64,000 bases of DNA from Escherichia coli (GCF_030013595.1 NZ_CP122769.1), one strand, 5' to 3'; numbered from the stretch's first letter, positions 1 to 31,744 are shown. Numbers and translations are program-made. The notes: a model not told the origin generated them from the sequence alone.

Positions 1-1107
1 CAGGCCATCTACTCCTTCAGATCCTCAGGAGGAGTCAAAATATTTCAACAGTTTGAAAAACACTTCAGACCTAACATATTTTACTTAAACACATGCTTTA
101 GGTGTGAACCTGAAATTTTAGAGGTGGCCGGAGCACTGATAGGAAAGAATGTTTACCGTTATGCCAAAGAGTTACGCTCGGCAAAAAAGGGAGGAGGAAA
201 GGTCACTTTTCGTTCATATGTAGATATGGAGGAACAGATACAGGGTATTTTAAGCCTTATAAATCAGGATCCACATGGATGGGCAATTCTAAGCCGCAAT
301 AATGCTCACTTGGATGAGCTAGAAAGTTTGATCGAACAGCCAGTAATTCGTTACGGAGGTAAATCATTCTGGGATGAAAAAGAAACAAGCGATGTGTTAA
401 GCCTTATGGCCTTTTTCCGACAATCAAATGATCCTCGCTTAATGAAGAGAGTATTGGCATTGTTTGGAGAACAGGAATCAGTTTTGGATGATGTGGCATT
501 GAGTATGAGAGGAAGAAAAGTTACTTTTGGCGACCTTGCCATCCCGGAGGACAGTTCTCTCGAAACAAAAACATTACATTCAAACTTCGTGCGCTTTACC
601 CAGGAAAGTACTGATAAAGTTGAGATAGCAAAACGTTTCGCCAACCTTACGAAATGGATGGAATCGTCGTCAATCAAGATGAGGAGTAATAAAGGTACAG
701 CAACCTTAACAAAAATTGCTTTAGACACTTGTAAACAGTGGGCAGAAAAGACTGGTTGGATGAATATGATCAATCGTGCTGCTGCAATGTCATTAGGCCC
801 TAGGAAGAAGGACGAGGAATACAGCCCAGAGAAAGTAGTCCTATCAACCTTGCATGGTTCAAAGGGTCTTGAGTGGAATAAAGTAATAATAATGAGTTGT
901 AATGCGGATCAGATACCAAGTAAAAGATCAGTTGGGGAGGAGGCAATAGAAGAAGAAAGACGTTTGCTTTATGTTGGATTTACGCGTGCAGAAAAGCAAC
1001 TTTTTGTAATGTGGTATGGTGACCCTTCTTTCTTTTTAAGAGAATGCAGTGAAGAAAAGATAAAAGAAGCAGCTAATATTCGAATTTCTCCAGTTTATAC
1101 AGAATAA
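1..1107 (+). CDS. UvrD/Rep-family SF1 DNA helicase, C-terminal part (5' end lies outside the window)
   Basis: Reading frame is open from nt 1 with no stop. Helicase motifs in translation: IYSFR (motif III-like), LNTCFRCEPEIL (motif IV-like), VLSTLHGSKGLEW (motif V), LLYVGFTRAEKQL (motif VI). Confidence 0.8.
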   Translation, partial: QAIYSFRSSGGVKIFQQFEKHFRPNIFYLNTCFRCEPEILEVAGALIGKNVYRYAKELRSAKKGGGKVTFRSYVDMEEQIQGILSLINQDPHGWAILSRNNAHLDELESLIEQPVIRYGGKSFWDEKETSDVLSLMAFFRQSNDPRLMKRVLALFGEQESVLDDVALSMRGRKVTFGDLAIPEDSSLETKTLHSNFVRFTQESTDKVEIAKRFANLTKWMESSSIKMRSNKGTATLTKIALDTCKQWAEKTGWMNMINRAAAMSLGPRKKDEEYSPEKVVLSTLHGSKGLEWNKVIIMSCNADQIPSKRSVGEEAIEEERRLLYVGFTRAEKQLFVMWYGDPSFFLRECSEEKIKEAANIRISPVYTE

Positions 1108-1501
1108 TTCGATATGGGCATTTACTTATGCTTAAAGCTATAGTATAAAAACAATGAGCTTAAATATCAGCTCCCAAATTTGAGTAACTTTGCTTAAAGT
1201 TACTTTCGCGTTAAGCGTTGATTTAGCCGTGAAAAGCGGCCAGCTTAAACAAGCTGTAAGACACCACCGGCAAAATGTCACCTTTGTCGCTGGTGCACTT
1301 CCCATGCCTGAAAAAGGCAATCTGAATTTACCAAACCGTAACTAATTTAGCTCCTCCTGGAGCTATTTTTGTTGCGTACTTCTAATGCCAGATAGTATAA
1401 ATCAGGCGGTTCATAGCTTACGGGAGATGAATGACAGGCTTTGCCTTCGTGTTGAAACAAAAAATTGTTTCTTCCTTCTTACTATATATAGGTGACCCCA
1501 A

Positions 1502-2374
1502 ATGTCTAAAAATAAAGCTCGCAGTAAAGCCCTTCATCAAACCTTTAGTGAAATTATTCCAGAGATGGATAAGGCGCTAAACAAACAGCTCTTAGAAGTT
1601 CTGATGAAATATACAGAACGTGATAATGAACTGATTGTTATTTTGAATGAGGACGGCCCAAATATCATTGAACTTAAGTCTCTTAAGCCTGTGTCTTTGT
1701 TGGCCGAAAAGCTTTCTGCTTATTCAAGCTATTATCATGTGGATGTTGTGGAGCTCGTGGTCAAGAAAATTGATTTCGAAGGAGCTTATAAGCTTCTTAA
1801 AGCTTCCCCAGATGTACCACTTTTTAAAAGCTTAACTGAACTGGATAAATATCTTGTTGAGGAGTTTGAAAAATACGGATTAAATTCATTTCTTGACGTG
1901 GATAATCTGGATTACTCACTTGAAAAAGCCAGTGAACTCAAAAATGAGCAGTTAATAAATTGGGTTTCGGACATCATTTGCAAACGTGAAAAATTAACTT
2001 TACGTAAGCGTTTTGATGTCGCAGTAAAGGCCCACTACGAAAATGTAGAAAAAATGTATGATACCATTCGTCCGTTAATGAAAAAACTGGGTTTCCCAGA
2101 AGATCTCATGACGCACACCTTTAGTGAGTTAAGCGTTTTTGAAACTAAAGGATGGGACCATGCAATAAAATCGAAAATTGAGACTCTCGCTAAGCGTGAA
2201 ACTCAATATTTAGATGATGCGGCTAAAGCAGAGAATCGACGTCTTGTAACAGAGAAGTTGGAGAACTCTTTAGCGATTGCACCAACTAAACCAACAAGAA
2301 ATTGGTTACATATTGCCGGAATTGCCTGTTTGGTAGTCTGCACGTTCATGTATGTAACTAATAAATTTATTTAA
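1502..2374 (+). CDS. hypothetical protein with C-terminal transmembrane anchor
   Basis: 290-aa ORF, ATG preceded by purine-rich stretch; hydrophobic C-terminus (WLHIAGIACLVVCTFMYV). No recognisable family. Confidence 0.5.
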   Translation: MSKNKARSKALHQTFSEIIPEMDKALNKQLLEVLMKYTERDNELIVILNEDGPNIIELKSLKPVSLLAEKLSAYSSYYHVDVVELVVKKIDFEGAYKLLKASPDVPLFKSLTELDKYLVEEFEKYGLNSFLDVDNLDYSLEKASELKNEQLINWVSDIICKREKLTLRKRFDVAVKAHYENVEKMYDTIRPLMKKLGFPEDLMTHTFSELSVFETKGWDHAIKSKIETLAKRETQYLDDAAKAENRRLVTEKLENSLAIAPTKPTRNWLHIAGIACLVVCTFMYVTNKFI

Positions 2375-2431
2375 TCCTGTTAAGGGGGAACCCTAACGGG
2401 GCTTCTCTTTGAACAAATCGAGGAGCGGAAA

Positions 2432-2809
2432 ATGTCATATCTTGAATATATCAATGAAGTAAAAGTGTCCGGGATAGTTATCAGTGCTGTGGAGAAAAAA
2501 ATGACTGACCAGAGTATAGGTTTGTTAATAAAGCTCAAAAATAGGATGAAGACAGAAGTTGATGGTGAAATCACTGAGAGAGAATTTTCAGTTCAAATCA
2601 AGGTGTCGCCTGAAATGTATTCAACCTGTTTCACTGGTATAAATCAGGGTGATGAGTTGATGGTCTCCGGTTATATTGTTGTCGATACTATTATGATTGA
2701 AGGGAGAGAACATCCTCTTGACTACATGAGAGTGGTAGCAACAAGTAAGTTGGCTCACATACCTAAACCTCTAAAAGGTTTTGGACAAAGTAGCTTTAAT
2801 CAGATCTGA
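2432..2809 (+). CDS. hypothetical protein, possible OB-fold ssDNA-binding-like
   Basis: 125-aa ORF with RBS GAGGAGCGG upstream. Alternating beta-strand pattern (NEVKVSGIVIS ... EFSVQIKV ... ELMVSGYIVV) loosely resembles SSB OB-fold; assignment is weak. Confidence 0.4.
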   Translation: MSYLEYINEVKVSGIVISAVEKKMTDQSIGLLIKLKNRMKTEVDGEITEREFSVQIKVSPEMYSTCFTGINQGDELMVSGYIVVDTIMIEGREHPLDYMRVVATSKLAHIPKPLKGFGQSSFNQI

Positions 2810-2829
2810 CATTAAACCCACCCTAAAGG

Positions 2830-2860
2830 GGAGAAATCCCTTCATGGGATTTCTCCTTTT
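2830..2860 (+). terminator. intergenic stem-loop (11-bp perfect stem GGAGAAATCCC/GGGATTTCTCC, loop TTCAT) followed by TTTT
   Basis: Perfect inverted repeat read directly from sequence, T-run downstream, sits between stop of upstream ORF and RBS of next ORF. Confidence 0.5.
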
Positions 2861-2869
2861 GGAGTCCCC

Positions 2870-3847
2870 ATGAAACAAAAATTTAGGGCTACTGCAATAA
2901 GTAGTAATCAACTTAGTTTTTTTTCTATACTCGATATAGATGAAGATGAAATAACGCAAATAGTTGATTCACCCAAAGAGCATTTAAATGATGCTTACAC
3001 GTCCGGATTAAACTTTAAATCAGAAGAAAGTAACATTTCTGAGATAAATTATGATTCTGAAAGGCGTGAAAATCACCTTTATGAAAAATCCAAATTACTT
3101 AAAAATCAGATTTTGCATACAATTAATTTTGCAGCAGAAACAGATTATCTATATACGGTTGAAGAATATAACCCAGATTTGGGTGGTCTGGTAATAGAAT
3201 GGACCCCTGAGGATGTGTATGTTGTTTTTCTATCCGCTATGGAAGAGTCTTTGGAAATCATTAAAGAACTAGTGTTGAGGAGAAAGTTATTCTTCAAAGA
3301 TGACAATGGTAATATCACAGTGAATCCACTTTTAGAAGCTGAAACACGGTGGTATATGTCAAAATCATTTGAATACACTTGTTTATCTCATGGACTTGAT
3401 GCATGTGAATTTAGAGCGGAATTAAAATCATGGCTCTATTATCATTCGCATCGTTCGATTAGTGAAAACACGAAATTAGCTGAATGCAGGAATGATGATG
3501 AAATCATTTTGCATGATTGCAATGACGATATGGGCTGGGACATCTTCTTTGATCAGGATTATTTAATGTCAGAAAAAAAACTGGCTGTTAAATGGACTGA
3601 CAGGGAAATTATGGATGTTTACATAAAAGCTTTTAAATCCACATTAGAGTTGTTTGACGAGCTTGTTTCATGTGATCTGTTAACTAAACGAAACGCTTTT
3701 GGCAAGTTAGAAATCAATCCAATATTCGAAAATCATTTTGAATGGATCATGTCTGAAGCTTTTGAAATAGTGGGAAATCATCTTGGTTATAATGTGCCTC
3801 AAATCAGGAAACTGATGGCAACTATTTGCCAAATGAATCTCAAATAA
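2870..3847 (+). CDS. hypothetical protein
   Basis: 325-aa ORF, co-directional with neighbours, preceded by stem-loop and GGAG-like RBS. No recognisable motifs. Confidence 0.5.
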   Translation: MKQKFRATAISSNQLSFFSILDIDEDEITQIVDSPKEHLNDAYTSGLNFKSEESNISEINYDSERRENHLYEKSKLLKNQILHTINFAAETDYLYTVEEYNPDLGGLVIEWTPEDVYVVFLSAMEESLEIIKELVLRRKLFFKDDNGNITVNPLLEAETRWYMSKSFEYTCLSHGLDACEFRAELKSWLYYHSHRSISENTKLAECRNDDEIILHDCNDDMGWDIFFDQDYLMSEKKLAVKWTDREIMDVYIKAFKSTLELFDELVSCDLLTKRNAFGKLEINPIFENHFEWIMSEAFEIVGNHLGYNVPQIRKLMATICQMNLK

Positions 3848-3904
3848 AATGCCACTGGCAAACATCTGCCAGAGGGCGGTGTTTGCATTTTACCGGAGTT
3901 AAAA

Positions 3905-4963
3905 ATGTCTAATGCCGCTATGAAGTTAAATGAAACATCTTCTGATGCTTATGAAAAATTAGAAGCTCTTCTTTCCCCGGATGTTATAAAGTTAAAACAT
4001 TATGTGGATAAAGGTGAGTATCTTTTAGTTCTAGCAAAGGACCTTTTTGGTATTCCAGAAATGGATCCAAAGATGGCTGTGCCTGTTTTCAAAACTAAAA
4101 CCTCGTATCGAGCTCCGCTGAACAAAGACTACATACCAAATCCCCGAATACTTGAACAAGTGGTTAAACTGCTTATCAGTCCGGATATAGATTTAAGTGT
4201 GTGTCTTAAAGGTGAGTCCGGTTCTGGCAAGACTGAAATGGTAATGTACATTAGCCACATGATGAATTGGCCGCTGACAATTAAGCAGATCAACAGCAAT
4301 ATTCGAGTTGATGAGCTTGAAGGTGAGCGCAGTCTTAATGGTGGTAATACAGGTTTTGTACACAGCGATTTGGTAACGGGATTTCGTAATGGTCACCTCA
4401 TTCTTCTGGATGAAGTGGACAAAATCGATCCTGATACGGCAGCAAAACTTCACATGCCCATTGAACGTAAGCCCTGGTCACTCAGTGCTAATGGTGGTGA
4501 GGTTATAACTGCTAATGGCTACACGCGATTTATTGGTACTGCAAACACAAACATGAGTGGAGGCGCTCGCCGGTTCGTTTCTTCTCAACGTCAAGATGCA
4601 GCTTTTATAAAGCGGTTCTTGATAGTTGAAATGGAGAAGCCCGACAAAGTTGCTTTAACCAATGTGCTTACTAAACGATATAGCTCTTTGCCTTTTCAGG
4701 TCATTGAGAAGTTCGTAAGAGTAGCGATTGCAGTAAATGACTCTGGTACAGAAGACAGTGTGATGGATATTCGTCAATTAGTAGCTTGGGTTGGCACGTC
4801 GATGACGTTAAAAACCTTTAGTCTTCTTGACACTTTCAAAATAGCTTTTGCTTCTGCTTTACCTTTACATGTGGTCGATCTTGTTCTTCAAGCTATAGAT
4901 CTTTCTCTTGGCGAAGACAAGGATAAATCGCTGGAGTATTTCACAGCAAAAAAGTCGAGTTAG
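3905..4963 (+). CDS. AAA+ ATPase, MoxR/CobS-like
   Basis: Walker A GESGSGKT, Walker B HLILLDEVDK, downstream sensor-like FIGTANT; size and motif spacing typical of MoxR/CbbQ/CobS-type AAA+ proteins. Confidence 0.8.
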   Translation: MSNAAMKLNETSSDAYEKLEALLSPDVIKLKHYVDKGEYLLVLAKDLFGIPEMDPKMAVPVFKTKTSYRAPLNKDYIPNPRILEQVVKLLISPDIDLSVCLKGESGSGKTEMVMYISHMMNWPLTIKQINSNIRVDELEGERSLNGGNTGFVHSDLVTGFRNGHLILLDEVDKIDPDTAAKLHMPIERKPWSLSANGGEVITANGYTRFIGTANTNMSGGARRFVSSQRQDAAFIKRFLIVEMEKPDKVALTNVLTKRYSSLPFQVIEKFVRVAIAVNDSGTEDSVMDIRQLVAWVGTSMTLKTFSLLDTFKIAFASALPLHVVDLVLQAIDLSLGEDKDKSLEYFTAKKSS

Positions 4964-5094
4964 ATGGGATTTGTTATGAAACCTCTGATATTTGTATCTC
5001 AGAGTTATCCCATCTTGAATTTAGTGCGTTTTTAAGTACGGATGGTGCTGCTACCATTGCTATAGCAAAAAACGGAACTAATTTTACTGGACTT

Positions 5095-5268
5095 ATGCAA
5101 CTGAATAACGACTATTCTTTATTGTTTTATCATGATGGTAAAATAAATATGGAAGGTCTGATTAAACAAATGGAATTAAAAGGTTATATGTATCAGGGAG
5201 CAATGGGCAATGATGATGTTGTTGCTGAGTTTCCCGGTATTCTTTTAATTTCACCAGAGAAGCTTTAA
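5095..5268 (+). CDS. possible small ORF (57 aa) in otherwise unexplained 355-bp gap
   Basis: ATG..TAA ORF (MQLNNDYSLLFYHDGKIN...) ending immediately before a stem-loop cassette like those that follow other genes in the array. No RBS checked; speculative. Confidence 0.2.
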   Translation: MQLNNDYSLLFYHDGKINMEGLIKQMELKGYMYQGAMGNDDVVAEFPGILLISPEKL

Positions 5269-5280
5269 TATCAACCCTAT

Positions 5281-5320
5281 CGGGAAATCTTTCCCGTTGG
5301 GGAGGGTTTCCCCTTTTTTT
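5281..5320 (+). terminator. double stem-loop cassette (CGGGAAA-TCT-TTCCCG and GGGGAGGGTTTCCCC) followed by T7
   Basis: Two adjacent palindromes and a T-run read from sequence, immediately upstream of RBS GGAGAAACCC and ATG at 5319. Confidence 0.5.
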
Positions 5321-6458
5321 GGAGAAACCCATGACTTTAAATACTTCAATGCTTAACAAAGTATCTGCAAAACAAATCTCTGAGAATTTTGCAAAATCAT
5401 ATCCAGATTTACTGGAAGGTGCAGTTATAACAAAAATTGAAATAAGTGGCTGTCAAGGATCGCGTCGAACCGATAAAATCGATTTGTCTTATGATGGAGA
5501 TGATATTACGGATCAAAAAAGCGTATCTAAAAGCGAAGTACGCTGGATTGACATAAAAGCCCTTAGCTTCAAAAGTACGATTACCAGCAGAATATCAACT
5601 CTTTGCTCACGCTTGTGCATCCGCTATAGCAATATGTGGATTTTACCAGTATCCAGTATGGAAGAGTTTCTGGAAGGGGCCCAAGAGATTGAACGAGAGT
5701 TTCAGGCAGGTATTCAAAACGTTGTAGACAATTATGAGATGCATATTGAGGCTGAAAAAAATAGAAGCCCAAGAATGTCTTCTTTGATTGATCAGTTGAA
5801 ATTAACTAAAGATGATTTCATAAAATCCTTTAGATTTAATATTGCTCACTTTATTCCTTTTACGCCTATTAGCGTTGAAGGTGATGAAACCCAGGACTAC
5901 TATCAGGAACAATTGATAACAGATCTGGCAGAAGAAGCAATGAAGGTTTATGAAAAAATTAGCAAAAATAACAATTTGCGCTCAAGTACTATTGACCGAC
6001 TGAAGCAAATGCAAAATAAGATCATTAGCTTCATGTTTATACATAAAGAGGCGGCAGTACTTGCAGAAGCTATAAAACACATAATGAATAATTTACCTAA
6101 AGGTGCCATTTCTGAACCTCGCGACGTTGCGGTGTTACAGCAGTGGTTTTATTTCATGAGTGATGCTTCAATGTTAAAGCGTATTATTTCAGGAGAGCAA
6201 AAGGTTACTGACTGGTTGGAATCTATTACCAGATCATTTAATCAAAGCTCACAAACAGAACCGAACGCGCTACAGAACACAGGTATTGAAGCTATTTTAG
6301 ATTCAACAAATGTGTTCCAGGTTGAACCTGTCGTAGAGAACGATATAAATAACAGCACGTTTTCAAACACTGATCCTGTAGCTGAACCTGAGAAATCAGT
6401 TTCGCAACAGGAAGACAATGTTGAAAATTGTTTTGATATCGAGCTCAAAGGCTGGTAA
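5319..6458 (+). CDS. hypothetical protein
   Basis: 379-aa ORF between the AAA+ ATPase and vWA genes; no recognisable motifs. Position suggests it belongs to the same module. Confidence 0.5.
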   Translation: MEKPMTLNTSMLNKVSAKQISENFAKSYPDLLEGAVITKIEISGCQGSRRTDKIDLSYDGDDITDQKSVSKSEVRWIDIKALSFKSTITSRISTLCSRLCIRYSNMWILPVSSMEEFLEGAQEIEREFQAGIQNVVDNYEMHIEAEKNRSPRMSSLIDQLKLTKDDFIKSFRFNIAHFIPFTPISVEGDETQDYYQEQLITDLAEEAMKVYEKISKNNNLRSSTIDRLKQMQNKIISFMFIHKEAAVLAEAIKHIMNNLPKGAISEPRDVAVLQQWFYFMSDASMLKRIISGEQKVTDWLESITRSFNQSSQTEPNALQNTGIEAILDSTNVFQVEPVVENDINNSTFSNTDPVAEPEKSVSQQEDNVENCFDIELKGW

Positions 6459-6477
6459 CTGTTTGCTTTATTAAAAA

Positions 6478-6520
6478 CCCCAGATGGGTACTTCACCATC
6501 TGGGTGAGTACCCCTTTTTT
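6478..6520 (+). terminator. intergenic stem-loop with two mutually exclusive pairings followed by T6
   Basis: CCAGATGG/CCATCTGG and GGGTACTTCACC/GGTGAGTACCC alternative stems, then CTTTTTT; lies between stop at 6458 and ATG at 6536. Confidence 0.5.
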
Positions 6521-6535
6521 ATAAAGAGGTATTCT

Positions 6536-8554
6536 ATGAAATTAGATCTTAAATCATCACCGCGCCATATTAAGCGTTTACAGAATATAGCAAAAGTCAT
6601 TAGCGGCTTAGGCGATGTAAGAGTTGTAATAGACGACAATACCAAAGGACCGTATTTTGATCCTGTAAATAAAGTTTGTGTTTTACCAAACGGCGATTAT
6701 AGCGATGATGACTTTGTCAGTCTGATTGAAGGTTTTACCTGTCATGAAGCTGGTCATGGTCGCTATACCGACAGCGAGGTTTACAGTGACGCCTTTAATA
6801 GTGTTCTCAAGTCATCTGAAGGGTTTACACGCTTCGATGACGGAATGAATGCAGAGTTTGAGAGCCTCGCTGAGAAACGTAAAGCTTATAGCAGGGCAAA
6901 ACGTCTTACCGGGCTTATAAATCTGTTCGATGATGTACAGATGGAAGAGAAGGTTGGTAACGATTATCCGGATGCAAAGCGGCGGCTTGCAGCCACTTAC
7001 GCACTGATGGTTAAAGCCGGAAGGATGACTCCTGATATATCTTCTCGTCCGGAAAATCCTGTCCTATTTATTGAGTGGTATCTGCTTAACTCATTGCGAG
7101 TAAAAGTCCTTCAGCAGGCAGGTCACAAAGAAACACTCGATCCGTTTTTTGACTATGCCCAAAAGATACTTTCTCCAGTAATTTCTGATGTTGAGGAAAT
7201 TTTTCATGATGCTCTTGGTTGTGAAAATACTCAGGGCTGTGAATCCCTTGCTCGTAAGACCCTGGCTCTTTTAGAGAGACTGCGGGATGAGGCAAGGGAA
7301 CAACAGCAGCAGACAGAGCAGGAGGAGCAGGAGGCATATGATGAATCCGAGACCGAGACCGATACCGATACCGATACCGAATCAGAAGATAAATCGCTTG
7401 AGTCGACTGATAGTCGTGAGGATGATTCTGAGGACGATAGTGAAGGTCAGGCAGATACTTCCGATAACTCTGATCTTGCTCAAGAGGGATGTTCTGAGCC
7501 TTCAGAACTTGCTGAAGATAACGAGGGAAATAATGAACCCACCGGTGGCAATCCCACAGGTGATAACATTATTGAAGACGATACTGATGCGATTAACCCT
7601 TCCGAGAGTGAATCAGATGAAGCCAGTTCGACTAACGTTGAAGATGAAAGTAACTTTTCATCGGCTCAATGGGAGATACTGGCAGATTTGTTGGATGCCT
7701 TTCTTGGCAGTGATGAGGATAGCGAAGATTATCACGATGCTTTGGCTAAAGAGATTGAAGGTATTGCATCAAAAGTATCCGATGACGTGAAAGCCGAATT
7801 CGGTGCTTCTGAATGGGATATCCCTGATCTCCTTATCGATTTGAATGTTTACAATGAGGCTTTGTCTCTGAGTCATTCAATCGGTAGCGACTTGTCTGTT
7901 TTACAGCAGGTTAAAATGCGTGGCCGAAACAAAACTCATGAGCGTGGAATTACCTTCGATGGAAATCGATTAATTCTGTCACCAATGGGAGTTCGTGATG
8001 TCTTCAGAGCTCAAAGCGAATCTAAAAATAGAGGGCATGTTGGCCTCGTATTAGTTCGTGATATTTCAGCGTCAATGGCTAATGATGAAAGATATATTCA
8101 TGCCATTAAGTCAGATCTTGCTTTATCGATGGCCGCTGAAAGTTTGTCAAAAATGCATGTCTCCAATATAGTCTTTCCCTTCAAGGAAAGTGAATTTGAG
8201 ATTATCAAAACGTTTGATCAAAGCGTTGAGGAATCTCTATCGAAATTCACTCTTGGATGTAAGGGTTATTATACCCCTACGGGATCGGCTTTAATGGCAG
8301 CTGTTGATCTGTTACTTGACAGCCAATTCGATAGGAAAATAATTTTTCTTATAACTGATGGTTATCCGAATAAATCGGAATTTACTATCGGCGAAGTTAT
8401 GGAAAAGGCTAAATGTAATGGAATAGAAATCGTTGGTGTTGGTATTAAGACTGATGAAATAATTGGTTTTGAAACGGACACTTTCGTAACAGTTGATGAT
8501 ACTTCTTTATTGTCTATTGAAGTCAGTAAGCTAGTTCATCAAATACTTTCTTAA
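6536..8554 (+). CDS. von Willebrand factor A (vWA) domain protein, CobT-like, with N-terminal HExxH motif and central acidic low-complexity region
   Basis: C-terminal MIDAS-like motifs LVLVRDISASM and FLITDGYPN; N-terminal CHEAGHGRY (HExxH); central D/E/S/T-rich stretch including ETETDTDTDTESED encoded by hexanucleotide repeats. Confidence 0.75.
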   Translation: MKLDLKSSPRHIKRLQNIAKVISGLGDVRVVIDDNTKGPYFDPVNKVCVLPNGDYSDDDFVSLIEGFTCHEAGHGRYTDSEVYSDAFNSVLKSSEGFTRFDDGMNAEFESLAEKRKAYSRAKRLTGLINLFDDVQMEEKVGNDYPDAKRRLAATYALMVKAGRMTPDISSRPENPVLFIEWYLLNSLRVKVLQQAGHKETLDPFFDYAQKILSPVISDVEEIFHDALGCENTQGCESLARKTLALLERLRDEAREQQQQTEQEEQEAYDESETETDTDTDTESEDKSLESTDSREDDSEDDSEGQADTSDNSDLAQEGCSEPSELAEDNEGNNEPTGGNPTGDNIIEDDTDAINPSESESDEASSTNVEDESNFSSAQWEILADLLDAFLGSDEDSEDYHDALAKEIEGIASKVSDDVKAEFGASEWDIPDLLIDLNVYNEALSLSHSIGSDLSVLQQVKMRGRNKTHERGITFDGNRLILSPMGVRDVFRAQSESKNRGHVGLVLVRDISASMANDERYIHAIKSDLALSMAAESLSKMHVSNIVFPFKESEFEIIKTFDQSVEESLSKFTLGCKGYYTPTGSALMAAVDLLLDSQFDRKIIFLITDGYPNKSEFTIGEVMEKAKCNGIEIVGVGIKTDEIIGFETDTFVTVDDTSLLSIEVSKLVHQILS

Positions 8555-8625
8555 TAAACTCTACCCAATCGGGGCAAAAGGCCCCGGTGGGTCTTTTTGC
8601 TCCATGAAGGAATAAGGAGCAAAAT

Positions 8626-8847
8626 ATGACTCAGATAAAAACTTACCGTGTAGAACATGAAAAAGTCGGTGCGATGCATAAAGTCCGTATTTTCGGACGT
8701 GTTGGTGAAGTTATAAGCAATGATAGCCCTCAGGAAAGAATCTTCCGCGAAGTCACTATAGCGGAGGGTAATAGCCAGCAGGCTGCGTTACTTGTAGATA
8801 ACTACATACAGCGTCTTGAGAATAATGGCTTCACGACTGAAGCATAA
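8626..8847 (+). CDS. hypothetical small protein (73 aa)
   Basis: ORF with strong RBS AAGGAG upstream; no recognisable motifs. Confidence 0.4.
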   Translation: MTQIKTYRVEHEKVGAMHKVRIFGRVGEVISNDSPQERIFREVTIAEGNSQQAALLVDNYIQRLENNGFTTEA

Positions 8848-8852
8848 ATGTT

Positions 8853-8876
8853 GAGGGCCCCCGGGCCCTCTTTCTT
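8853..8876 (+). terminator. palindrome GAGGGCCCCCGGGCCCTC followed by TTTCTT
   Basis: Perfect GC-rich palindrome directly after the stop at 8847, followed by a T-rich run. Confidence 0.45.
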
Positions 8877-8960
8877 AAATTCTGCGTTGTGGGTTTCTCC
8901 CTGTCTTCTGCACCGCAGAAGGCATTGAGAAACTCACAATGCCAGATAAGAGAGATCATC

Positions 8961-10193
8961 ATGACTTATGCATCCCCGGCTCTTCGTCGTAATCCACAGG
9001 AAGTATCTGAACACTTTATTAAACTCGTTCATGCTCGAATTGCTGAAGTGTCTGGCTGGAAGTATATATTCGAAAGAATACCTGCTTTCAAAGACGCTTG
9101 TGCAAAAGCCCCGAGCCAGGTTCCTTGCCCGTTTACTGGCGCAGGGAAATCGAAGTTTCGTTTCCGACAAAAAGACCTTTATACCGGATGTGCGATCCAT
9201 AATGACTTTCCGGTAAATGAGTTTTGCGACGGAATTGATGTTCTGGCGAAATATTATGAATTAAGTAAAACGCAGACTTGCAAAAAGATTCTCTCAGATT
9301 TTTTCGGGATGGATCTGCATGCTCCGTTAACTGACGCCGACATTGAAAATGAACGACGCTATAAATCAGCAGTTCGTGCCACAGAAACTCTTGACCGAGA
9401 GGAAGTGGCAAAGCGAATGCGAAAACTTGATGTGATGTATCACTATACCGGTGAAATCAAGCCTAATACTCCTGTTGCTTTGTACCTCCGTAATCGTGGG
9501 ATCTCCCGCTTACTGAGTCACTTACCAAAGGATTTAGGCTTTAATAACCGGATCTACTATTGGGATAAAGATAAGCAGAAATCGATTATCTATCCGGGAA
9601 TGATTGCGATCTATCGTGACACCCGAGGTCGGCCTCTGACTATTCATAGAACATACGTAGACAAAAATGGTGATAAGGCACCTGTAGAAAATCCAAAGCT
9701 GATGATGAAGCCTCCTGCCGATATGACAGGTGGCTCAATTCAGTTGTTTGACCCTCACTATGATTCAGGTAGTTCGACCTGGACACTGGGAGTGGCTGAA
9801 GGGATCGAGAACGCGCTTTCTGTTGTAGAAGCGACTTCAACACCATGCTGGGCAGCCAGCTCCGCATGGTGCCTTGAAAACGTTACTGTTCCTGATTTTT
9901 TACTGCCTCCGCCGGATGTAAAATCTATAAACTTTTATATCTGGGCGGATAAGGATATTGCTAACTCACAAGGCACTCGTGCCGGTATTGAAGCTGCTCA
10001 GCGACTTCAAAGCCGCATGGTTGAGTTTTTGGCTAAACGATATCCCGCATCAAAGCTGACAATTGAAGTCTTCGAACCAGCACAAGATATTCCTGATGGG
10101 AAAAAGGGTATCGACTGGAACGATGTTCTCCAGTTAACAGGGCAGGATGGATTCCCGATTCACTGGGCTCCTGAATGTCTTAATCAGCTGTAA
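8961..10193 (+). CDS. Toprim-domain protein, putative primase-like
   Basis: Toprim-like motifs LGVAEGIENALSV (acidic E) and IWADKDIANSQG (DxD), Cys/His-rich N-terminus. Start chosen at ATG 8961 (MTYASP...); ORF extends to 8889 upstream. Confidence 0.55.
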   Translation: MTYASPALRRNPQEVSEHFIKLVHARIAEVSGWKYIFERIPAFKDACAKAPSQVPCPFTGAGKSKFRFRQKDLYTGCAIHNDFPVNEFCDGIDVLAKYYELSKTQTCKKILSDFFGMDLHAPLTDADIENERRYKSAVRATETLDREEVAKRMRKLDVMYHYTGEIKPNTPVALYLRNRGISRLLSHLPKDLGFNNRIYYWDKDKQKSIIYPGMIAIYRDTRGRPLTIHRTYVDKNGDKAPVENPKLMMKPPADMTGGSIQLFDPHYDSGSSTWTLGVAEGIENALSVVEATSTPCWAASSAWCLENVTVPDFLLPPPDVKSINFYIWADKDIANSQGTRAGIEAAQRLQSRMVEFLAKRYPASKLTIEVFEPAQDIPDGKKGIDWNDVLQLTGQDGFPIHWAPECLNQL

Positions 10194-10226
10194 CAACGAT
10201 AACTCCCCCGCTTTTTGCGGGGGGGG

Positions 10227-10270
10227 TTATCTTATCAATATTATATTTTAAAATTGTATTGATAAGATAA
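10227..10270 (+). promoter_or_regulatory. 14-bp perfect inverted repeat TTATCTTATCAATA / TATTGATAAGATAA separated by 16-bp AT-rich spacer; candidate operator
   Basis: Read directly from sequence; follows the hairpin CCCCCGCTTTTTGCGGGGG (10205-10227) inside a 270-bp ORF-free gap. Confidence 0.4.
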
Positions 10271-10463
10271 CCGCTTTCCTTCGTGATAATTACCTGCCTT
10301 TAAGGTCTTTTCACGGCTGAGATGCTTGCTCAGTTAAATAAATGTGCGGTACTACTGGCTATGGTCGGTTGTATGACATGGTTATTCCATAAACTATTAA
10401 AACCCATAACGGGAGTATTACCGTTATGGTGATGCTCGTCGTTTTACATCGGAGAGCATTTTA

Positions 10464-10985
10464 ATGAATTTTCAAATTAACGAAGTTTTTAATAAATTTG
10501 CTGCTGTTATAAAATCGCGCATCGTCAATGAACCATCGTCATGCTATTTGCTGCATGATAATGAGATAGATATAACGATTTTGAAACATAGCATATTAGA
10601 AAATGACAGAAACCTGTTGTACGTAGTTCGTCCTTCAGGAACGTGTTTGTTGCGTTGTGACAAATATTTCTATCCGAAATATTATCTTCGTTGCCGTGGA
10701 GATTATAAGTCATTCATATATGTCCATCTTGATCTACATAGTGGTGAAGCTAAAGAAATCACATGGGAGCAAGCAGACGATATGCTGTCTAGTCCAGGAA
10801 AACCCCCATTAAAAGGGAATCTTGGACGATTTGAGTATATAAAAGTTGTGGTTGAGGACCTTCGTATTCGAGGTTACGCTGATTATCTTCCTGCGTATAA
10901 TCTTGATGACCTTCGCCGTTTTGCCTTACAGGACGACCGCCCATCCCTTGTCAGATACATTGACAATGTCATGGCAACGGTCTGA
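10464..10985 (+). CDS. hypothetical protein
   Basis: 173-aa ORF with RBS GGAGAG upstream; no recognisable motifs. Confidence 0.45.
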   Translation: MNFQINEVFNKFAAVIKSRIVNEPSSCYLLHDNEIDITILKHSILENDRNLLYVVRPSGTCLLRCDKYFYPKYYLRCRGDYKSFIYVHLDLHSGEAKEITWEQADDMLSSPGKPPLKGNLGRFEYIKVVVEDLRIRGYADYLPAYNLDDLRRFALQDDRPSLVRYIDNVMATV

Positions 10986-11063
10986 TTGATTGCTAATTGA
11001 TTTACATATTTTCCCTGATGGCCAACCTGCATCAGGGAGGCCTCAATAACGAATGGAGGCTGT

Positions 11064-11942
11064 ATGAAGTTAGCTACGGACCTGGTAAAAGCTATTTTGA
11101 TTAGAAATGGCGTTGAACCAGTAAATATAAGCGAATCATCTAAGTTATCTTTGAAACAACCACTGACAGAACTTAAATTCAGTTTATATTTGCGAACTGA
11201 GCATTTATCTCACTTCCTACCCGGTTATGTTTATTCTATAAAAGAATGTCCACTGTCATATGACATCGGGATCGAAATTCAGAAAATCTTCGAAAGTTTA
11301 CATTTGTTAAACGAAGAATTTGAATCCCTCGGTTTTGTTTCTGTATGGATAGAAATGCATCAAAGCATTTTTGAACAAAGTCGGTTTAAGAAAAGTAACT
11401 TTACTTTTCGGGAGGAAGAGGTCGAGCTTGCTAAAGGGCTTGTTTGTTCTCACAATTCACAAATAAGTAATGCGGCTTATTTCTGGCTTCAGCACTTTGA
11501 GGAGTTTATGATTTATGTTCGTAATAAGCTTATCGACCTCTTTCGAGAGGCCTATGACCTGATCCTTGGAATGCAGCAAGTATTTTTCATTCGGGAAAAG
11601 GAAGAGCTGTTGAAAACTATAAGTTATGGCGATGAGCTGTATGAGGTGAAATTCATGGCGGCTGAGCTTTACTCTATCGAACAGAACTTAAAGTGTTCTG
11701 AATCGATAAGTACAAAATCTCAAGCTTCGGCATATATTAACCGCATCCGTGAGTTTGTGCGTTCGGGGTGGAGGCAGGGCTATATAGTCTGCCATCATAA
11801 GCGAAGTAATCAAATTTCATCATTGTCATTACCGATGTACTTGAAAGATACGTCAGGCCGAAGTGCTCGAAAGCGAGTAAAACGTCTTATATCTTCTACA
11901 GTTTGTGGTAGAAATAAAGATTTAGGTCTTACAGATTTTTAA
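11064..11942 (+). CDS. hypothetical protein
   Basis: 292-aa ORF with RBS GGAGG upstream, preceded by stem-loop CCCTGATG...CATCAGGG; no recognisable motifs. Confidence 0.45.
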   Translation: MKLATDLVKAILIRNGVEPVNISESSKLSLKQPLTELKFSLYLRTEHLSHFLPGYVYSIKECPLSYDIGIEIQKIFESLHLLNEEFESLGFVSVWIEMHQSIFEQSRFKKSNFTFREEEVELAKGLVCSHNSQISNAAYFWLQHFEEFMIYVRNKLIDLFREAYDLILGMQQVFFIREKEELLKTISYGDELYEVKFMAAELYSIEQNLKCSESISTKSQASAYINRIREFVRSGWRQGYIVCHHKRSNQISSLSLPMYLKDTSGRSARKRVKRLISSTVCGRNKDLGLTDF

Positions 11943-11960
11943 TTAAATTATACCCATGTG

Positions 11961-11996
11961 GGGATCACACCCCATATGGGAGTGATCCCTTTTTTT
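11961..11996 (+). terminator. stem-loop GGGATCAC...GTGATCCC with nested palindrome CCCATATGGG, followed by T7
   Basis: Inverted repeats and T-run read from sequence, between stop at 11942 and ATG at 12013. Confidence 0.5.
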
Positions 11997-12012
11997 ATTG
12001 AGAGAGGATCAC

Positions 12013-12948
12013 ATGAAAATTATCGAAAAAATCATTAATGCCTTTTTGGTTGTTCAACATAAAAAAATACAGGTTAAAAACATTACATTTTTAGACAATG
12101 GGCAGGGCATGTTCTCTGGTATGTCTTTTGATGCTGATGTTTCACTGGAGTTTATGTATGAATCAGCAAAAGCATATAGTTCTTGTTTCTTTGATATTCC
12201 CTTTCCAGGTTTTGAAGATGCAAATCTGGAGGAAATTACGAAATTTCAATTAGATGCTTTGAAGCAAAGAAAGAATCATTCTTTCTTTGTTAACCATTTG
12301 AGGTTTCCTATAGTTTTAAGGGAAGGGTGCAAAATCGAAAGAGGAGAAGTCTATTCAATTTCGAATTGCACTTATAATAAAGAAAGATTGCAGTATCTTT
12401 TTTCTCAGGATATTTACGGTAAGTTGTATAATTCCTTAGAGAAAGAATTAAGCTCGTTTTTCTCATTTATCAATGTTGAGGTGCACGAGTTGTTAAAAGA
12501 TGCTGTATGCTTTGCATTAAAAATCCTGAATAAGATATCTTTGGATACACCTGAAAGACTTATTAAAGCTTTTAATTATCGTGACTGGTATTGTAGTTAC
12601 GATGTTGAGCTTTTTAGGAAAGGCTTACCTGGTCATATTCTGGAAGAGCTCATTGCTCCAGATATCTTACTTTCAGACCTTAACGGTTGTAGAAAAATAC
12701 TTAGAAATGCAAAACGATTTCTAAATGGACATACACAAACCAATTGTGTTTATATTAAATATGAATGGTGGTTGGGGCCTGTTGATACCTCACACTCAGC
12801 TAAGTTGATGTCTGACAAAGAAATTAATAACCGAAGTGACTTGAAGAATTTTTCAAAGGTCTTTTTCAAAGAGTGTTTAAGTTCTGGTAAGTCGGAATAT
12901 GAAAACCATCTTAGTGAAAAAGAACATGCGCTTCGCTATAATTATTAA
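12013..12948 (+). CDS. hypothetical protein (~312 aa), first of a tandem array of similarly sized genes
   Basis: ATG at 12013 preceded by RBS GAGAGAGGA (the listed ORF starts at an upstream TTG). No recognisable motifs. Confidence 0.45.
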   Translation: MKIIEKIINAFLVVQHKKIQVKNITFLDNGQGMFSGMSFDADVSLEFMYESAKAYSSCFFDIPFPGFEDANLEEITKFQLDALKQRKNHSFFVNHLRFPIVLREGCKIERGEVYSISNCTYNKERLQYLFSQDIYGKLYNSLEKELSSFFSFINVEVHELLKDAVCFALKILNKISLDTPERLIKAFNYRDWYCSYDVELFRKGLPGHILEELIAPDILLSDLNGCRKILRNAKRFLNGHTQTNCVYIKYEWWLGPVDTSHSAKLMSDKEINNRSDLKNFSKVFFKECLSSGKSEYENHLSEKEHALRYNY

Positions 12949-13016
12949 TTAAAATTATTTTCTCCCATAGGGATTTCTCCCTATGGGAGAAATCCCTCTA
13001 TTAAGAGGGTATTGAA

Positions 13017-13688
13017 ATGAATGCTATACAAAAGTTAGTTGAATCTATTCTTGTTAAAATGGGTTTTGTTGGCGCTGTAGTGGAAAATATATATTTGGAT
13101 TCAAAACCATTTCGGCATATTCGATTTGTGGCTGATATTCCAGTAATATCTTTTCTACCTCATTTGGTGAAATATCTTAAGGGTGCAGACCATCTTTACA
13201 GTGGTAACGATGATTTGCATCCTCTTTTCATTTATTTTTCCGAAGCGGCTACATTAAAAGCAGGTCCTGTAAATCTCGCGAACTTTCGTTTTGAAGTTTC
13301 TATAGCTTCAACTCATTTACGACTGGTCTCAGAGCAGCCTGATTTGCTTTTCAAAGGATTTAACCGGGATAATCTAGAATACGTTTATTACCGCTCAGAT
13401 TTGGCCTCTAGGGATCTTATACTAGGCCTTGTTGAACACGGTTCTCCTTTCATAAAACATCTACATGGACTTATACAAAAGCGAATTTTAAACGAGTTCT
13501 CTCTGATTTTTTCTGTTCTTGAAAAGATTTTAGAAAGCGCGAAGCCACAAATTCTTGCTTGCTTCCATAGTGTTGATTATGAAATGAACGTAAAAATAAT
13601 AGCCGAAGCTATACCTGAAACTGTATCTAATCAGATAGTCACATCTGATTATATAGTTAATGTTAGCGCCAATGATATAAGACTGTAA
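13017..13688 (+). pseudogene. 5' part of a gene interrupted by the IS21-family element
   Basis: Stop codon TAA (13686-13688) lies inside the first bases of the IS end TGTAATTCGCC; the reading frame resumes in the same frame after the element (15787 onward). Confidence 0.5.
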
Positions 13689-13761
13689 TTCGCCATTTGG
13701 GTTGTCCGCTCCACCCAACATGTTGTTTCCTTGAGGTTCTCACACCAGAAAGGACATCGAC

Positions 13762-15731
<1,970 letters not shown>

Positions 15732-15786
15732 TCAAATAGCGGACATTAAAAATGGCGAAAACCGGCCATAAATCTTGGCGTTGACA

Positions 15787-16067
15787 TTAATTCTATATCA
15801 GATGCGGACAAGTTTATAAATCATGTTCGTCGCTATTTAGCAGGCAGGGTAATGAAGAGGCGGATATACGCTGAATTAGATGTTTGTGAAGAAACATCAA
15901 GTATTTCACTAGTGAACTTAGGATGCTTTACGTCTCCTCTGCTCGTTACGGAATATCAAATGTTTAAGCCACACTCTTCAGGGTTATATCGAAAAGCTAT
16001 AAACAACTCCTTAAAACAGTTCAAACCAGAAATGCATGTACCTTCTGAAGAACTCTTTTATAATTAA
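15787..16067 (+). pseudogene. 3' part of the gene interrupted by the IS21-family element
   Basis: Frame is open from the IS end to stop at 16067 and is the same frame (mod 3) as the 5' part; combined length about 316 aa, matching neighbouring genes. Confidence 0.45.
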
Positions 16068-16078
16068 TCTAACCCATC

Positions 16079-16115
16079 CGGGAACCTGCTTCCCGGTGGG
16101 AAGCACTTCCTTTTT
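16079..16115 (+). terminator. stem-loop cassette CCGGGAACCTGCTTCCCGG / GGGAAGCACTTCC followed by T5
   Basis: Inverted repeats and T-run between stop at 16067 and RBS/ATG at 16134. Confidence 0.5.
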
Positions 16116-16133
16116 AGTCATGAGGTAGTGTAA

Positions 16134-17072
16134 ATGTTTAAAGAATCTGACCACGTGGAATTTGTTAGTGCCTTTCTTTATCAAAATTTAGGCCTTAATG
16201 TTTCCGCTGACGATATAACCGTTCAATTATCTGATACTTCGTTCGACAAAGTAACCTTTGATTACGATGTAGATATCGATAATTTAAATTGTATGTTGGA
16301 TCTCTACATATCTGAGCTAATAAAGCACAACGCATCTTACTCCGATTCTATTCTTTTGAAACAAAAAATAATTTATTTTCTTGGAGTATTTAAGAATTTC
16401 GGATTTTTTACGTTTGATATTCGCGGATATAGTAATACTTTAAGCCCAGTTAAAGTTATTGATATTGTTTCAATGATTATTAATGACTGTGAAGAGTTAT
16501 CTAAAGCTAATTCTTCTACTGATGCTATAAGAAATCTTTATCTCGATAAAATGAAGGTGGATGGGAAAGTGTTAGTTGCGAAATTTGCACTTAAACAGTT
16601 TTTTCATTCCGACTTTGGTGACTTTATCTCATTTGTCGAGAAAAGAATTACAGATTGTCTTAATGAAACTTTAAGGATTATCAAAGCTGTTGAACATGGC
16701 TTTGTACGTGTAGGGCAGCATAAGATTAATCGCCGTATTAATGATGACTTAAAGTTATGCATTGATTTCAATACTGATGATTATCCGGCAAATATGCCAG
16801 ATATATATATTAAGTTTAACGATACATTTGATGGGAACGGGGCGTTATATTGTGACAATGATGCCCTCATATCCCTCTATACCGATGTTGCTTCAATTAT
16901 CAATGTGCCGGTGATGATGGAAGTAAGATTGATCAATAAAAGAGGGCGTGTTGTCTGTGATTCTTCGCATTCAACTTACGTATCTCTCGAAAGTAATGAC
17001 CGATACAGAGTAACTGATCGCACATTACTAATAACTGAAGCTTTTGACGATTTTCGTAACGCGTCTCAATGA
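16134..17072 (+). CDS. hypothetical protein, paralogue A of tandem pair
   Basis: 312-aa ORF with RBS GAGGTAGTG. Shares colinear blocks with next gene (KVLVAKFALKQFFHSDFGDFISFVEKRIT vs QVMIARFALQQFWDTHFIGLITFVSESIT; EAFDDFRN vs EVFDNLRN). Confidence 0.5.
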   Translation: MFKESDHVEFVSAFLYQNLGLNVSADDITVQLSDTSFDKVTFDYDVDIDNLNCMLDLYISELIKHNASYSDSILLKQKIIYFLGVFKNFGFFTFDIRGYSNTLSPVKVIDIVSMIINDCEELSKANSSTDAIRNLYLDKMKVDGKVLVAKFALKQFFHSDFGDFISFVEKRITDCLNETLRIIKAVEHGFVRVGQHKINRRINDDLKLCIDFNTDDYPANMPDIYIKFNDTFDGNGALYCDNDALISLYTDVASIINVPVMMEVRLINKRGRVVCDSSHSTYVSLESNDRYRVTDRTLLITEAFDDFRNASQ

Positions 17073-17237
17073 TCCTTTTGCTTCAGTCCAAAAAAGTAAC
17101 TTTGGTTGGCTGAAGACACTTGTCTATGACAATGTAAAATCTGTCGCTGGCATCTTCTTTTAGCTTAACCAAATTTTTATCTAACCCAGTGGGGAAGTCG
17201 CTTCCCTTCTGGGGCACTTCCTCTCAAATTCGAGGTA

Positions 17238-18200
17238 GTGTATATGACACATTCATCTGATGATAAAAACTATGTCCGAGCAGTTCTGAGTTATCTTGGC
17301 ATAGATTTTGATGAGGCGGATATAGTATTAAGTGTTTGCCATTGTCAAAGTGACGAGCTTTCTTTTACCTGTAATATCAAAGCTATTGAACTCAAGAATG
17401 CTGTTGATTTATATGTCGATAGTATCTCTGAGAATGAAATAGAAGCTTTAAACAGAGAATCTTTAAAATCGCGACTCTGTTACTTTCTTGAGGTGTTTGA
17501 CGCAGTCTCTGGTCAGTACCTTGAAATTTCAGGAAAACACTTTGCAACTAGTCGTTTTGAATATGATGATGTTTGTAGTGAAGTTCTTAGCATGTCTAAT
17601 GATGTTTCTCAGTCGAAAGGTTATGACCGGGATGAATATAACAGACTGATGCAGGTTGATGGTCAGGTTATGATTGCCCGTTTTGCTTTGCAACAGTTCT
17701 GGGATACTCATTTTATTGGACTAATAACATTTGTATCTGAGTCTATAACATCGAGCCTCTATAAAGCTTATGAAACTTTTAGTGATATTAGTTTGGCTTG
17801 CTATAAACTGAGTGAATATTCTTATTCACGCTCTATCAACAGTGAATTGACCCTTAATATTTCACTTAAAGAAAATGACTTCTGTGAGGACCTATCTGAT
17901 TGCTATATGGAAGATGAGGCTTTACCTTCTGGTAGGGTAATTTCTCGACGCAACAATGACTCCATAATAAGTATTTATGAGAGCTATGCTGCGGCTTCTT
18001 ATATTCCGATGATTGCATCTTTGGAAGTCGTTGATGAATACGGCGAAGTGGTTACTGACCTCTGCCATACCGTTTATGTTTCAGAGTTAACCGGTGGGCG
18101 GATTAAAATCCACGACCGTAATGACTTAGTATCTGAAGTTTTCGATAACCTAAGAAATTTAAATCTTGCAGTTGGAGATTCAGTTTCACAAGCTGCTTGA
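17238..18200 (+). CDS. hypothetical protein, paralogue B of tandem pair
   Basis: 320-aa ORF with identical RBS context (GAGGTAGTGTATATG); colinear similarity to 16134-17072 product. Confidence 0.5.
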   Translation: MYMTHSSDDKNYVRAVLSYLGIDFDEADIVLSVCHCQSDELSFTCNIKAIELKNAVDLYVDSISENEIEALNRESLKSRLCYFLEVFDAVSGQYLEISGKHFATSRFEYDDVCSEVLSMSNDVSQSKGYDRDEYNRLMQVDGQVMIARFALQQFWDTHFIGLITFVSESITSSLYKAYETFSDISLACYKLSEYSYSRSINSELTLNISLKENDFCEDLSDCYMEDEALPSGRVISRRNNDSIISIYESYAAASYIPMIASLEVVDEYGEVVTDLCHTVYVSELTGGRIKIHDRNDLVSEVFDNLRNLNLAVGDSVSQAA

Positions 18201-31722: not shown

Positions 31723-31744
31723 GACATCCCCTTAATTAATAAAA

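Follow-up and report, generated by a model that had tools for sequence, protein, structure and literature searches.

The window examined here is a stretch of 64,000 nucleotides from Escherichia coli (GCF_030013595.1 NZ_CP122769.1), read on one strand, which comes from an IncHI2 (mcr-1-type) conjugative plasmid. Its first 10 kb hold the 3′ part of the helicase gene trhI, followed by nine + strand genes which fill positions 1502-10193 (Table 1). This nine-gene cluster is part of the core IncHI2 backbone and is found 3′ of the mating-pair gene trhN/traN in every IncHI subgroup. It may represent a conjugation-coupled kit for the processing and protection of plasmid DNA, made in the transfer-competent state and having the transferred strand and the newly established plasmid as its substrates, a reading whose chances are put at about even. 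The cluster is not a leading region, which is refuted by its position, linkage and expression. The DNA of this region has long been known; what is new is its reading as a helicase/primase variant of a module of the type of the hde (host defence evasion) operon of IncC plasmids, together with a HExxH motif in one of its proteins. Resistance to heavy metals, the multidrug resistance of typhoid, mcr-1 and mcr-9 are all carried by IncHI1 and IncHI2 plasmids, and the link to the IncC/SXT host defence evasion locus offers a concrete, testable reason for the conservation of the cluster.

Identity of the window and gene content

The entire window corresponds to positions 39067-103067 of NZ_CP117034.1, a 232,119-bp Salmonella mcr-1 IncHI2 plasmid, the sole difference in length being one base in the intergenic stretch 5268-5331. 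Bases 1-10500 are present at 99-100% identity in more than 1,100 plasmid records, mostly from Escherichia, Salmonella and Enterobacter and mostly typed as conjugative. As positions 1-10193 are matched at this level in so many plasmids, the genes are real and conserved and do not represent chance open reading frames (ORFs). Plasmid typing of the records examined, the full-window match included, gave IncHI2A, MOBH and MPF_F. A tRNA scan of the window identified no tRNA gene and thus no sign of an integration site, and a search of Rfam over the whole window returned no family. A first-pass annotation, made from the sequence alone, had proposed a conjugative-plasmid setting, which is borne out by the full-window IncHI2 match, and genes for DNA handling, with which the gene content agrees; the five gene types it named (UvrD-like helicase, OB-fold protein, MoxR/CobS-like AAA+ ATPase, CobT-like vWA protein and Toprim primase-like protein) were all recovered on the + strand where it had put them.

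The annotated order upstream of the cluster is trhU, trhN, one reverse-strand gene and trhI. The cluster itself is followed by about 12 kb of further hypothetical genes on the same strand, with an IS21 element inside, and these by a Tus homologue, a tyrosine recombinase, hha, the tellurite (ter) operons, hipA and a Tn7-like transposon. The gene trhI, annotated as 'IncHI-type conjugal transfer helicase TrhI', starts about 677 bases to the left of the window, which holds the C-terminal 327 of its 594 amino acids (aa). This part matches Rep/UvrD/PcrA models (E-values 1e-21 to 1e-26) and phrog_1967, while the full-length protein possesses the Pfam domains UvrD-helicase and UvrD_C.

Table 1. Genes and hairpins in the first 10 kb of the window (aa, amino acids; SF1, superfamily 1)
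Feature	Position	Strand	Remarks
trhI, 3′ part	1..1107	+	UvrD/Rep-like SF1 helicase; last gene of IncHI Tra2
Terminator-like hairpin	1348..1365	+	inside the 394-base gap 3′ of trhI
290-aa orphan	1502..2374	+	hydrophobic C-terminal anchor (...HIAGIACLVVCTFMYV...); orthologue of R27 R0002
OB-fold protein, 125 aa	2432..2809	+	SSB/PriB-like (predicted); orthologue of R27 R0001
325-aa orphan	2870..3847	+	orthologue of R27 R0210
AAA+ ATPase	3905..4963	+	MoxR/CobS class; Pfam AAA_5; Walker A GESGSGKT; orthologue of R27 R0209
Small gene	4996..5268	+	annotated as 57 aa from 5095; counterpart of R27 R0208
Terminator-like hairpin	5282..5312	+	
DUF3150 protein (PF11348)	5331..6458	+	Pfam DUF3150 the sole match; orthologue of R27 R0207
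HExxH-acidic-vWA protein, 672 aa	6536..8554	+	orthologue of R27 R0206; homologue of the IncC vWA protein
Terminator-like hairpin	8568..8588	+	
73-aa orphan	8626..8847	+	orthologue of R27 R0205 (66% identity); 30% identity in IncHI1B
Terminator-like hairpin	8853..8870	+	
DUF7146-Toprim_3 primase-like protein, 410 aa	8961..10193	+	orthologue of R27 R0204
GC-rich terminator hairpin (10203-10225), then AT-rich palindrome (10225-10272, 23-nucleotide arms)	10203..10272	.	end of the nine-gene cluster

Conservation among relatives and regulation in R27

Plasmid R27 (IncHI1) and the Klebsiella IncHI1B plasmids share the order trhN/traN, reverse-strand gene, helicase, three genes, AAA+, DUF3150, vWA, small gene and Toprim, with further genes downstream of the latter as far as Tus, the recombinase and hha. 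The R27 genes R0204-R0002 and trhI (R0003) are gene-for-gene orthologues of those in the window, lie in the same order and differ by sequence divergence only. Every orphan has a positional orthologue, with 47-87% identity in R27 and 22-32% in IncHI1B; for the membrane-anchored 290-aa orphan the same-position orthologues show 60% and 25% identity respectively. The orphans are fixed backbone genes across all IncHI subgroups, and not a variable island. The reading frame of the small gene extends back to 4966 without a stop, and the full length of R27 R0208 (89 aa) can be aligned with it at 47% identity. Where R0208 has its GTG start the window has ATC, so that translation either begins at a non-standard codon or yields a shorter protein. 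The 325-aa orphan has an apparent internal duplication, seen by eye in its translation, and a weak homologue (E-value 6e-5) directly 5′ of the AAA+ gene in one distant relative.

Outside the IncHI group, an Aeromonas MOBH plasmid has the helicase, Toprim, AAA+, DUF3150 and vWA genes, there too 3′ of trhN/traN. Two distant DUF3150 homologues (25-28% identity) lie on contigs with the order TraN, a reverse-strand gene, a UvrD helicase, a small gene, a Pfam-positive SSB, AAA_5, a small gene and DUF3150.

In R27-carrying cells the nine-gene cluster R0204-R0002 shows steady-state expression 5.3- to 22.9-fold stronger at 25°C, which permits conjugation and at which the tra genes are induced as well, than at 37°C, and is nearly silent at the latter temperature, at which the plasmid still replicates; trhI (R0003) is outside the list of induced genes (PMC7366339). 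By their coordinates and by the published R27 deletion table (PMC4853401), the induced genes are exactly those from the Toprim gene to that of the 290-aa orphan. The deletion table lists R0209 as NirQ-like and places the boundary between deletions Del18 and Del19 at 175,050, between R0205 and R0206. R27 remained normally stable after the loss of R0206-R0210 in Del19, a deletion that takes out the vWA, DUF3150, small and AAA+ genes together with a portion of the 325-aa gene (PMC4853401), and these genes are therefore not needed for vegetative maintenance. Deletion Del18 (R0199-R0205, including the Toprim gene) was not obtainable (PMC4853401). It covers R27 168,601-175,050, equivalent to about 8600-18200 of the window, and with it the Toprim gene, that for the 73-aa orphan, the orthologue of a 173-aa gene and four genes of approximately 300 aa; this stretch may contain something essential or toxin-linked. 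Co-induction at 25°C and normal stability after Del19 together indicate that the cluster is a transfer-co-regulated unit which is at least partly dispensable for maintenance.

Comparison with the hde operon of IncC plasmids

In an IncC plasmid traN is followed by AAA+, a 302-aa gene (vcrx090), ssb, bet, exo, DUF3150 and vWA. The locus is on the strand of the relaxase gene, approximately 31 kb downstream of it, and has a counterpart in SXT/R391 elements. In pVCR94, vcrx089 (an AAA_5/CbbQ_C ATPase), vcrx090, ssb, bet and exo constitute the hde operon, the transcript of which continues at least into vcrx094 (Roy et al., 2020; PMC7498323). Deletion of vcrx089-090 decreases transfer to V. cholerae 25-fold, only if the recipient possesses a type I restriction enzyme, and transfer is restored by expression of these genes in the recipient and not in the donor (PMC7498323). 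The ssb-bet-exo genes repair Cas3 breaks and work when expressed in the recipient (PMC7498323). IncHI plasmids are not mentioned by Roy et al. (2020; PMC7498323), and no paper was found in a literature search on the cobS-ssb-bet-exo genes of SXT.

Like the IncC/SXT hde locus, the IncHI2 cluster is positioned 3′ of traN in a MOBH/MPF-F element and has an AAA_5 ATPase and an SSB-type protein, with DUF3150 and vWA genes following. The AAA+ ATPase shows 27% identity over 275 aa to Vcrx089 (E-value 1e-27) in the same neighbourhood, the vWA protein 22% over its full length to its IncC homologue (E-value 3e-23), and the DUF3150 protein 19% (E-value 3e-5). The likeness to the hde ssb product is shared at the level of the fold only, the protein of the window being a short divergent OB fold without an acidic tail. 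Unlike hde, the cluster has no Vcrx090, Bet or Exo, in place of which there are a UvrD-like helicase, a Toprim primase-like protein and four further orphans. With Pfam, no RecT or YqaJ domain (Bet, Exo) was detected over the stretch that begins with trhN and ends 10 kb beyond the Toprim gene, nor was there any NCBIfam or PHROG match to these. The 325-aa orphan and the DUF3150 protein were considered as counterparts of Vcrx090, and no relationship was found by BLASTP or profile comparison. BLASTP of IncC Vcrx090 against the 325-aa orphan gave nothing, although a very divergent analogue is still conceivable, and comparison of the Vcrx090 family profile with those of the 325-aa orphan family and of DUF3150 gave probabilities of less than 1%.

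The AAA+, DUF3150 and vWA trio

The nearest solved relatives of the AAA+ ATPase are midasin, NorQ, CobS and CbbQ (weak matches), all of which work with vWA partners. Like CobS-CobT, NorQ-NorD, CbbQ-CbbO and midasin, the cluster pairs an AAA_5 ATPase with a protein ending in an acidic linker and a vWA domain. It differs from these MoxR pairs in that no metabolic client is encoded, the vWA protein has a HExxH N-terminal domain, a DUF3150 gene is interposed and the genes are carried by a mobile element. Weak CobS and CobT-type matches, which are the source of some database names, might suggest cobaltochelatase metabolic genes; however, with CobS scoring 34 bits against a cut-off of 558 and a putative chelatase model 34 against 779, no CobN in the window, no cobalamin context and a vWA N-terminal domain unlike CobT in the scans that were run, this explanation retains next to no probability.

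The vWA protein is modular in structure. Its N-terminal domain has a HExxH motif (residues 70-74) with a downstream D...E (133-137), both of which are invariant in eight homologues spanning 18-69% identity, these being from IncHI1, IncHI2, IncHI1B, Aeromonas, IncC and three others. This is followed by an acidic linker with 37% Asp/Glu over the 150 residues 251-400 and by the C-terminal vWA domain, the C-terminal part giving weak VWA and CobT-type matches. The HExxH...D...E arrangement looks like the pattern of a zinc-metallopeptidase site. As the N-terminal 265 aa have no match in Pfam and a profile of the N-terminal domain found no relative in the PDB, such a site is proposed at the level of the motif. 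A PDB search with the full protein returned nothing useful beyond the vWA domain, and in phages the vWA protein matched the Vibrio phage ICP2 'CobT' alone, and this in the vWA domain only.

The DUF3150 gene is always found between the AAA+ and vWA genes. A structural model of its product (predicted local distance difference test score, pLDDT, 80) combines helical bundles with an N-terminal part of mixed alpha/beta structure and an acidic tail which is disordered; against the PDB it gave only generic helical-bundle matches. In BFVD, DUF3150-like folds were identified in uncultured tailed phages and in Mycobacterium phage Dylan (E-values 4e-11 to 8e-4), suggesting that the trio may extend beyond plasmids. 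A tblastn search with the DUF3150 protein against deposited phage genomes found none, and a search of the literature on DUF3150 nothing useful.

The OB-fold protein and the Toprim primase-like protein

The 125-aa product of the second gene is predicted from its structural model to be an SSB/PriB-like protein and not a canonical SSB. The AlphaFold2 model, built with nine homologues (pLDDT 84), has five strands, the third and fourth of which are linked by a helix, and its leading Foldseek matches in the PDB are all bacterial or mitochondrial SSB or PriB proteins (E-values of about 1e-5, probability 1.0). A profile search gave a weak match to the Deinococcus SSB over the whole domain (E-value 0.075), and no match was obtained for the family in Pfam, SSB (PF00436) included. 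At its C-terminus the protein has a conserved PKPxKGFGxSSF motif (...PKPLKGFGQSSFNQI) and no acidic SSB tail. In the distant relatives and in IncC a true, Pfam-positive SSB gene occurs at this position, and so the OB-fold gene can be said to occupy the place of a true ssb.

The last gene of the cluster has its annotated start at 8961, while the first-pass annotation had chosen a GTG at 8889. Its product matches phrog_510 'DNA primase' (E-value 1e-27), and the motifs EGIE, DxD and GxDWxD are invariant in four homologues. The Toprim domain is preceded by a zinc-ribbon-like segment (CPFTG...FRF...C..H...CDGIDVL) in which the cysteines are partly lost and the CxxC is degenerate. A sequence search of the PDB found no solved relative. 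Sog of ColIb-P9 and TraC of RP4 are plasmid primases which prime the complementary strand. A Toprim domain with an EGxxxA-type glutamate motif and DxD is presumably what the protein has in common with Sog, TraC and the P4 alpha primase; it differs from these in being small and stand-alone, without a helicase domain, and is a predicted primase from its sequence.

Proposed function of the cluster

In the proposed kit, the OB-fold protein would coat single-stranded DNA and the Toprim protein would prime the complementary strand in the manner of Sog and TraC, while the MoxR-type ATPase with its vWA partner and the DUF3150 protein would remodel host proteins on the entering DNA, for example type I restriction complexes, or remove them from it, by analogy with Vcrx089-090. 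An anti-defence role is plausible on this analogy for part of the IncHI block. A more specific and rather unlikely extension is that the trio is a hitherto unrecognised protein-remodelling or protein-degrading machine of MOBH elements (IncHI, IncC, SXT-like and Aeromonas) and some phages, which would strip or destroy restriction or other DNA-bound defence complexes on incoming DNA, and which IncHI plasmids would pair with a helicase, an SSB-like protein and a primase instead of Bet and Exo. With its conserved HExxH, the vWA partner may offer a way into the mechanism by which restriction is countered by the AAA+ gene pair.

A number of points weigh against this interpretation. The identity to the IncC proteins is low (19-27%), and the AAA+ ATPase scores about equally against phage CobS-like families (phrog_249, E-value 2.5e-30); because of both, it is mainly the gene neighbourhood that supports orthology to IncC. 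Vcrx090, Bet and Exo, which are needed for the IncC phenotypes, are without counterpart in the IncHI block. In transposon insertion sequencing of IncC only vcrx089-093 were reported as depleted (PMC7498323), and the two shared genes after exo were thus not flagged. A role for the IncHI block in transfer, or in evasion of restriction or CRISPR, is read across by analogy with IncC. Lastly, expression in the donor state fits a purely donor-side role equally well.

Such a role, as a transfer accessory in the donor only, is rather unlikely. TrhI would unwind the plasmid, and the OB-fold, primase-like and AAA+/vWA proteins would support production of the transferred strand and synthesis of its replacement, with no part in anti-defence. 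The linkage to Tra2, the co-induction with tra genes in plasmid-carrying cells and the annotation of trhI as a transfer helicase are all consistent with this. However, the IncC homologues acted in the recipient and not in the donor, and trhI itself is outside the induced list.

The cluster could alternatively be a primosome or replication-fork accessory for the vegetative replication of a very large plasmid, with a helicase, a PriB-like protein, a primase and, 10 kb downstream, a Tus homologue (20784-21764). The PriB-like fold, the primase-like Toprim protein and the failure to obtain Del18 of R27, which covers the Toprim gene, would agree with this, but R27 is stable without R0206-R0210, the cluster is nearly silent at 37°C though the plasmid replicates, and the trio recurs in IncC beside recombination genes and not replication genes. 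Such an accessory is accordingly regarded as quite improbable.

MoxR-vWA pairs also occur in nucleoside triphosphate-dependent conflict systems, and the ATPase has very weak PADLOC matches (E-values 2e-4 to 7e-3). That the cluster is a system of this kind, defending the host or plasmid against phages or rival plasmids, is nevertheless very unlikely: no gene has a significant PADLOC match except for generic UvrD-helicase similarity, there is no nuclease, pore or TIR-domain effector, and the block is fixed beside the transfer genes and co-regulated with them.

Distance from oriT

No relaxase gene is present in the window, nor anything similar to the IncHI Tra1/oriT segment. In NZ_CP117034.1 (IncHI2, 232 kb) the oriT-bearing gap is at 157,662-158,421, between the trhR-side genes and mobI, and is followed by the MobH relaxase gene (159,644-162,796) and traD, the region extending to 164.9 kb. 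The block is at 38,389-49,260, and so 108 kb away in one direction and 112 kb in the other, almost opposite oriT and with about 100 annotated genes between on the nearer side. In R27 (180 kb) the oriT-bearing gap is at 108,149-108,907 and the block runs from the Toprim gene at 173,473 through the origin of the record to trhI at 3,900, the distance being 65 kb on the side away from the relaxase and 104 kb on the other. The gaps of IncHI2 and R27 show 74-79% identity, and oriT of R27 was reportedly mapped by Lawley and co-workers in 2002 to the one matching that of IncHI2.

The organisation of the cluster had led the first-pass annotation to propose a conjugative-plasmid leading region, in which the orphans would be anti-restriction or anti-CRISPR-type genes. 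The first part of this is contradicted by the location of oriT and the relaxase 108-112 kb away and by the block adjoining Tra2. According to Samuel et al. (2024; PMC11541004), the relaxase belongs to the lagging region and anti-defence genes are enriched among roughly the first 30 ORFs. Like the leading regions of F, IncI and related plasmids (ssb, psiB, ardA; PMC11541004), the block has co-directional genes with an SSB-type protein on the relaxase-gene strand of a conjugative plasmid; unlike these, it is at least 65-108 kb from oriT, has none of the known anti-defence families and no Frpo-like hairpin that could be found, and is co-expressed with tra. Both block and relaxase gene are on the + strand in IncHI2 and on the − strand in R27, and they also share a strand in IncC. 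If the relaxase gene enters last, this makes the transferred strand the template strand of the block; the shared strand discriminates little, however, because most backbone genes have the same orientation, and a leading region is defined by its position.

As for the orphans, the 290-, 325-, 57- and 73-aa products gave no family match in scans of NCBIfam, PHROG, PADLOC and Pfam. No anti-restriction, anti-CRISPR or SOS-inhibitor match was found for any of the ten products in Pfam, NCBIfam or PHROG, and the anti-defence idea finds no support from homology for the orphans; for the AAA+ ATPase, as a homologue of Vcrx089, it is plausible and has indirect support. That early-expressed anti-restriction or anti-CRISPR genes are to be found among the orphans of a region entering the recipient first is highly improbable. 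It would be in keeping with co-directional genes on the relaxase-gene strand, with the SSB-like and primase-like genes and with the anti-restriction phenotype of the IncC homologue of the AAA+ gene. Apart from the distances (108-112 kb in IncHI2, 65-104 kb in R27), it is opposed by the lack of an oriT homologue in the window, the adjoining Tra2 mating-pair genes, the absence of matches to the ArdA, KlcA, PsiB and Acr families, intergenic DNA with short terminators and no long Frpo-type hairpin, expression in plasmid-carrying cells and a content which is fixed across the IncHI subgroups.

It follows from the distance that the conjugation-coupled kit cannot act by entering first, and any role in the recipient would be by later expression or by proteins carried over from the donor. 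On the link to the hde locus, defence-evasion functions of MOBH elements are located beside mating-pair genes and far from oriT, where surveys restricted to leading regions will miss them.

Beside the relaxase operon of NZ_CP117034.1, and outside the window, there are about 40 small same-strand genes at 168.8-208 kb, whose products include Hok, RelE, an HNH nuclease, a PAPS-reductase-like protein and two methyltransferases. In appearance this stretch is closer to an anti-defence or establishment island than is the nine-gene block, with its order of transfer depending on the direction of transfer.

Intergenic DNA

The gap 3′ of trhI has several small hairpins and no single long one. The two long intergenic regions fold well (z-scores −4.2 and −7.0), into short terminator-type hairpins and one palindrome; no long Frpo-like hairpin was seen. 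The palindrome is the AT-rich one which ends the cluster and may be an operator or a two-way terminator; the intergenic DNA 3′ of the Toprim gene has 81% identity to R27.

Other features of the window

Downstream of the cluster are five consecutive genes of about 300 aa with similar N-termini (11064-18200), the last two being paralogues with 27% identity. The third is cut by the IS21 element (13762-15731, istA/istB, GC content 0.53), with a 223-aa stump at 13017-13688. The Tus (replication-terminus-binding) homologue is divergent and belongs to the plasmid backbone, with conserved counterparts in R27 and IncHI1B; after it come the tyrosine recombinase gene (reverse strand, 22981-24171) and hha. 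The tellurite-resistance region (26155-46106) has a kinase/PP2C phosphatase/TerY-vWA/TerD set and an ATP-grasp/phosphoribosyltransferase set. Also present are a hipBA-type toxin-antitoxin pair (48.9-50.6 kb) and a Tn7-like transposon with tnsABCD (55.4-62.3 kb). The GC content rises from about 0.38 to 0.50-0.55 across the tellurite, hipBA and Tn7-like accessory parts.

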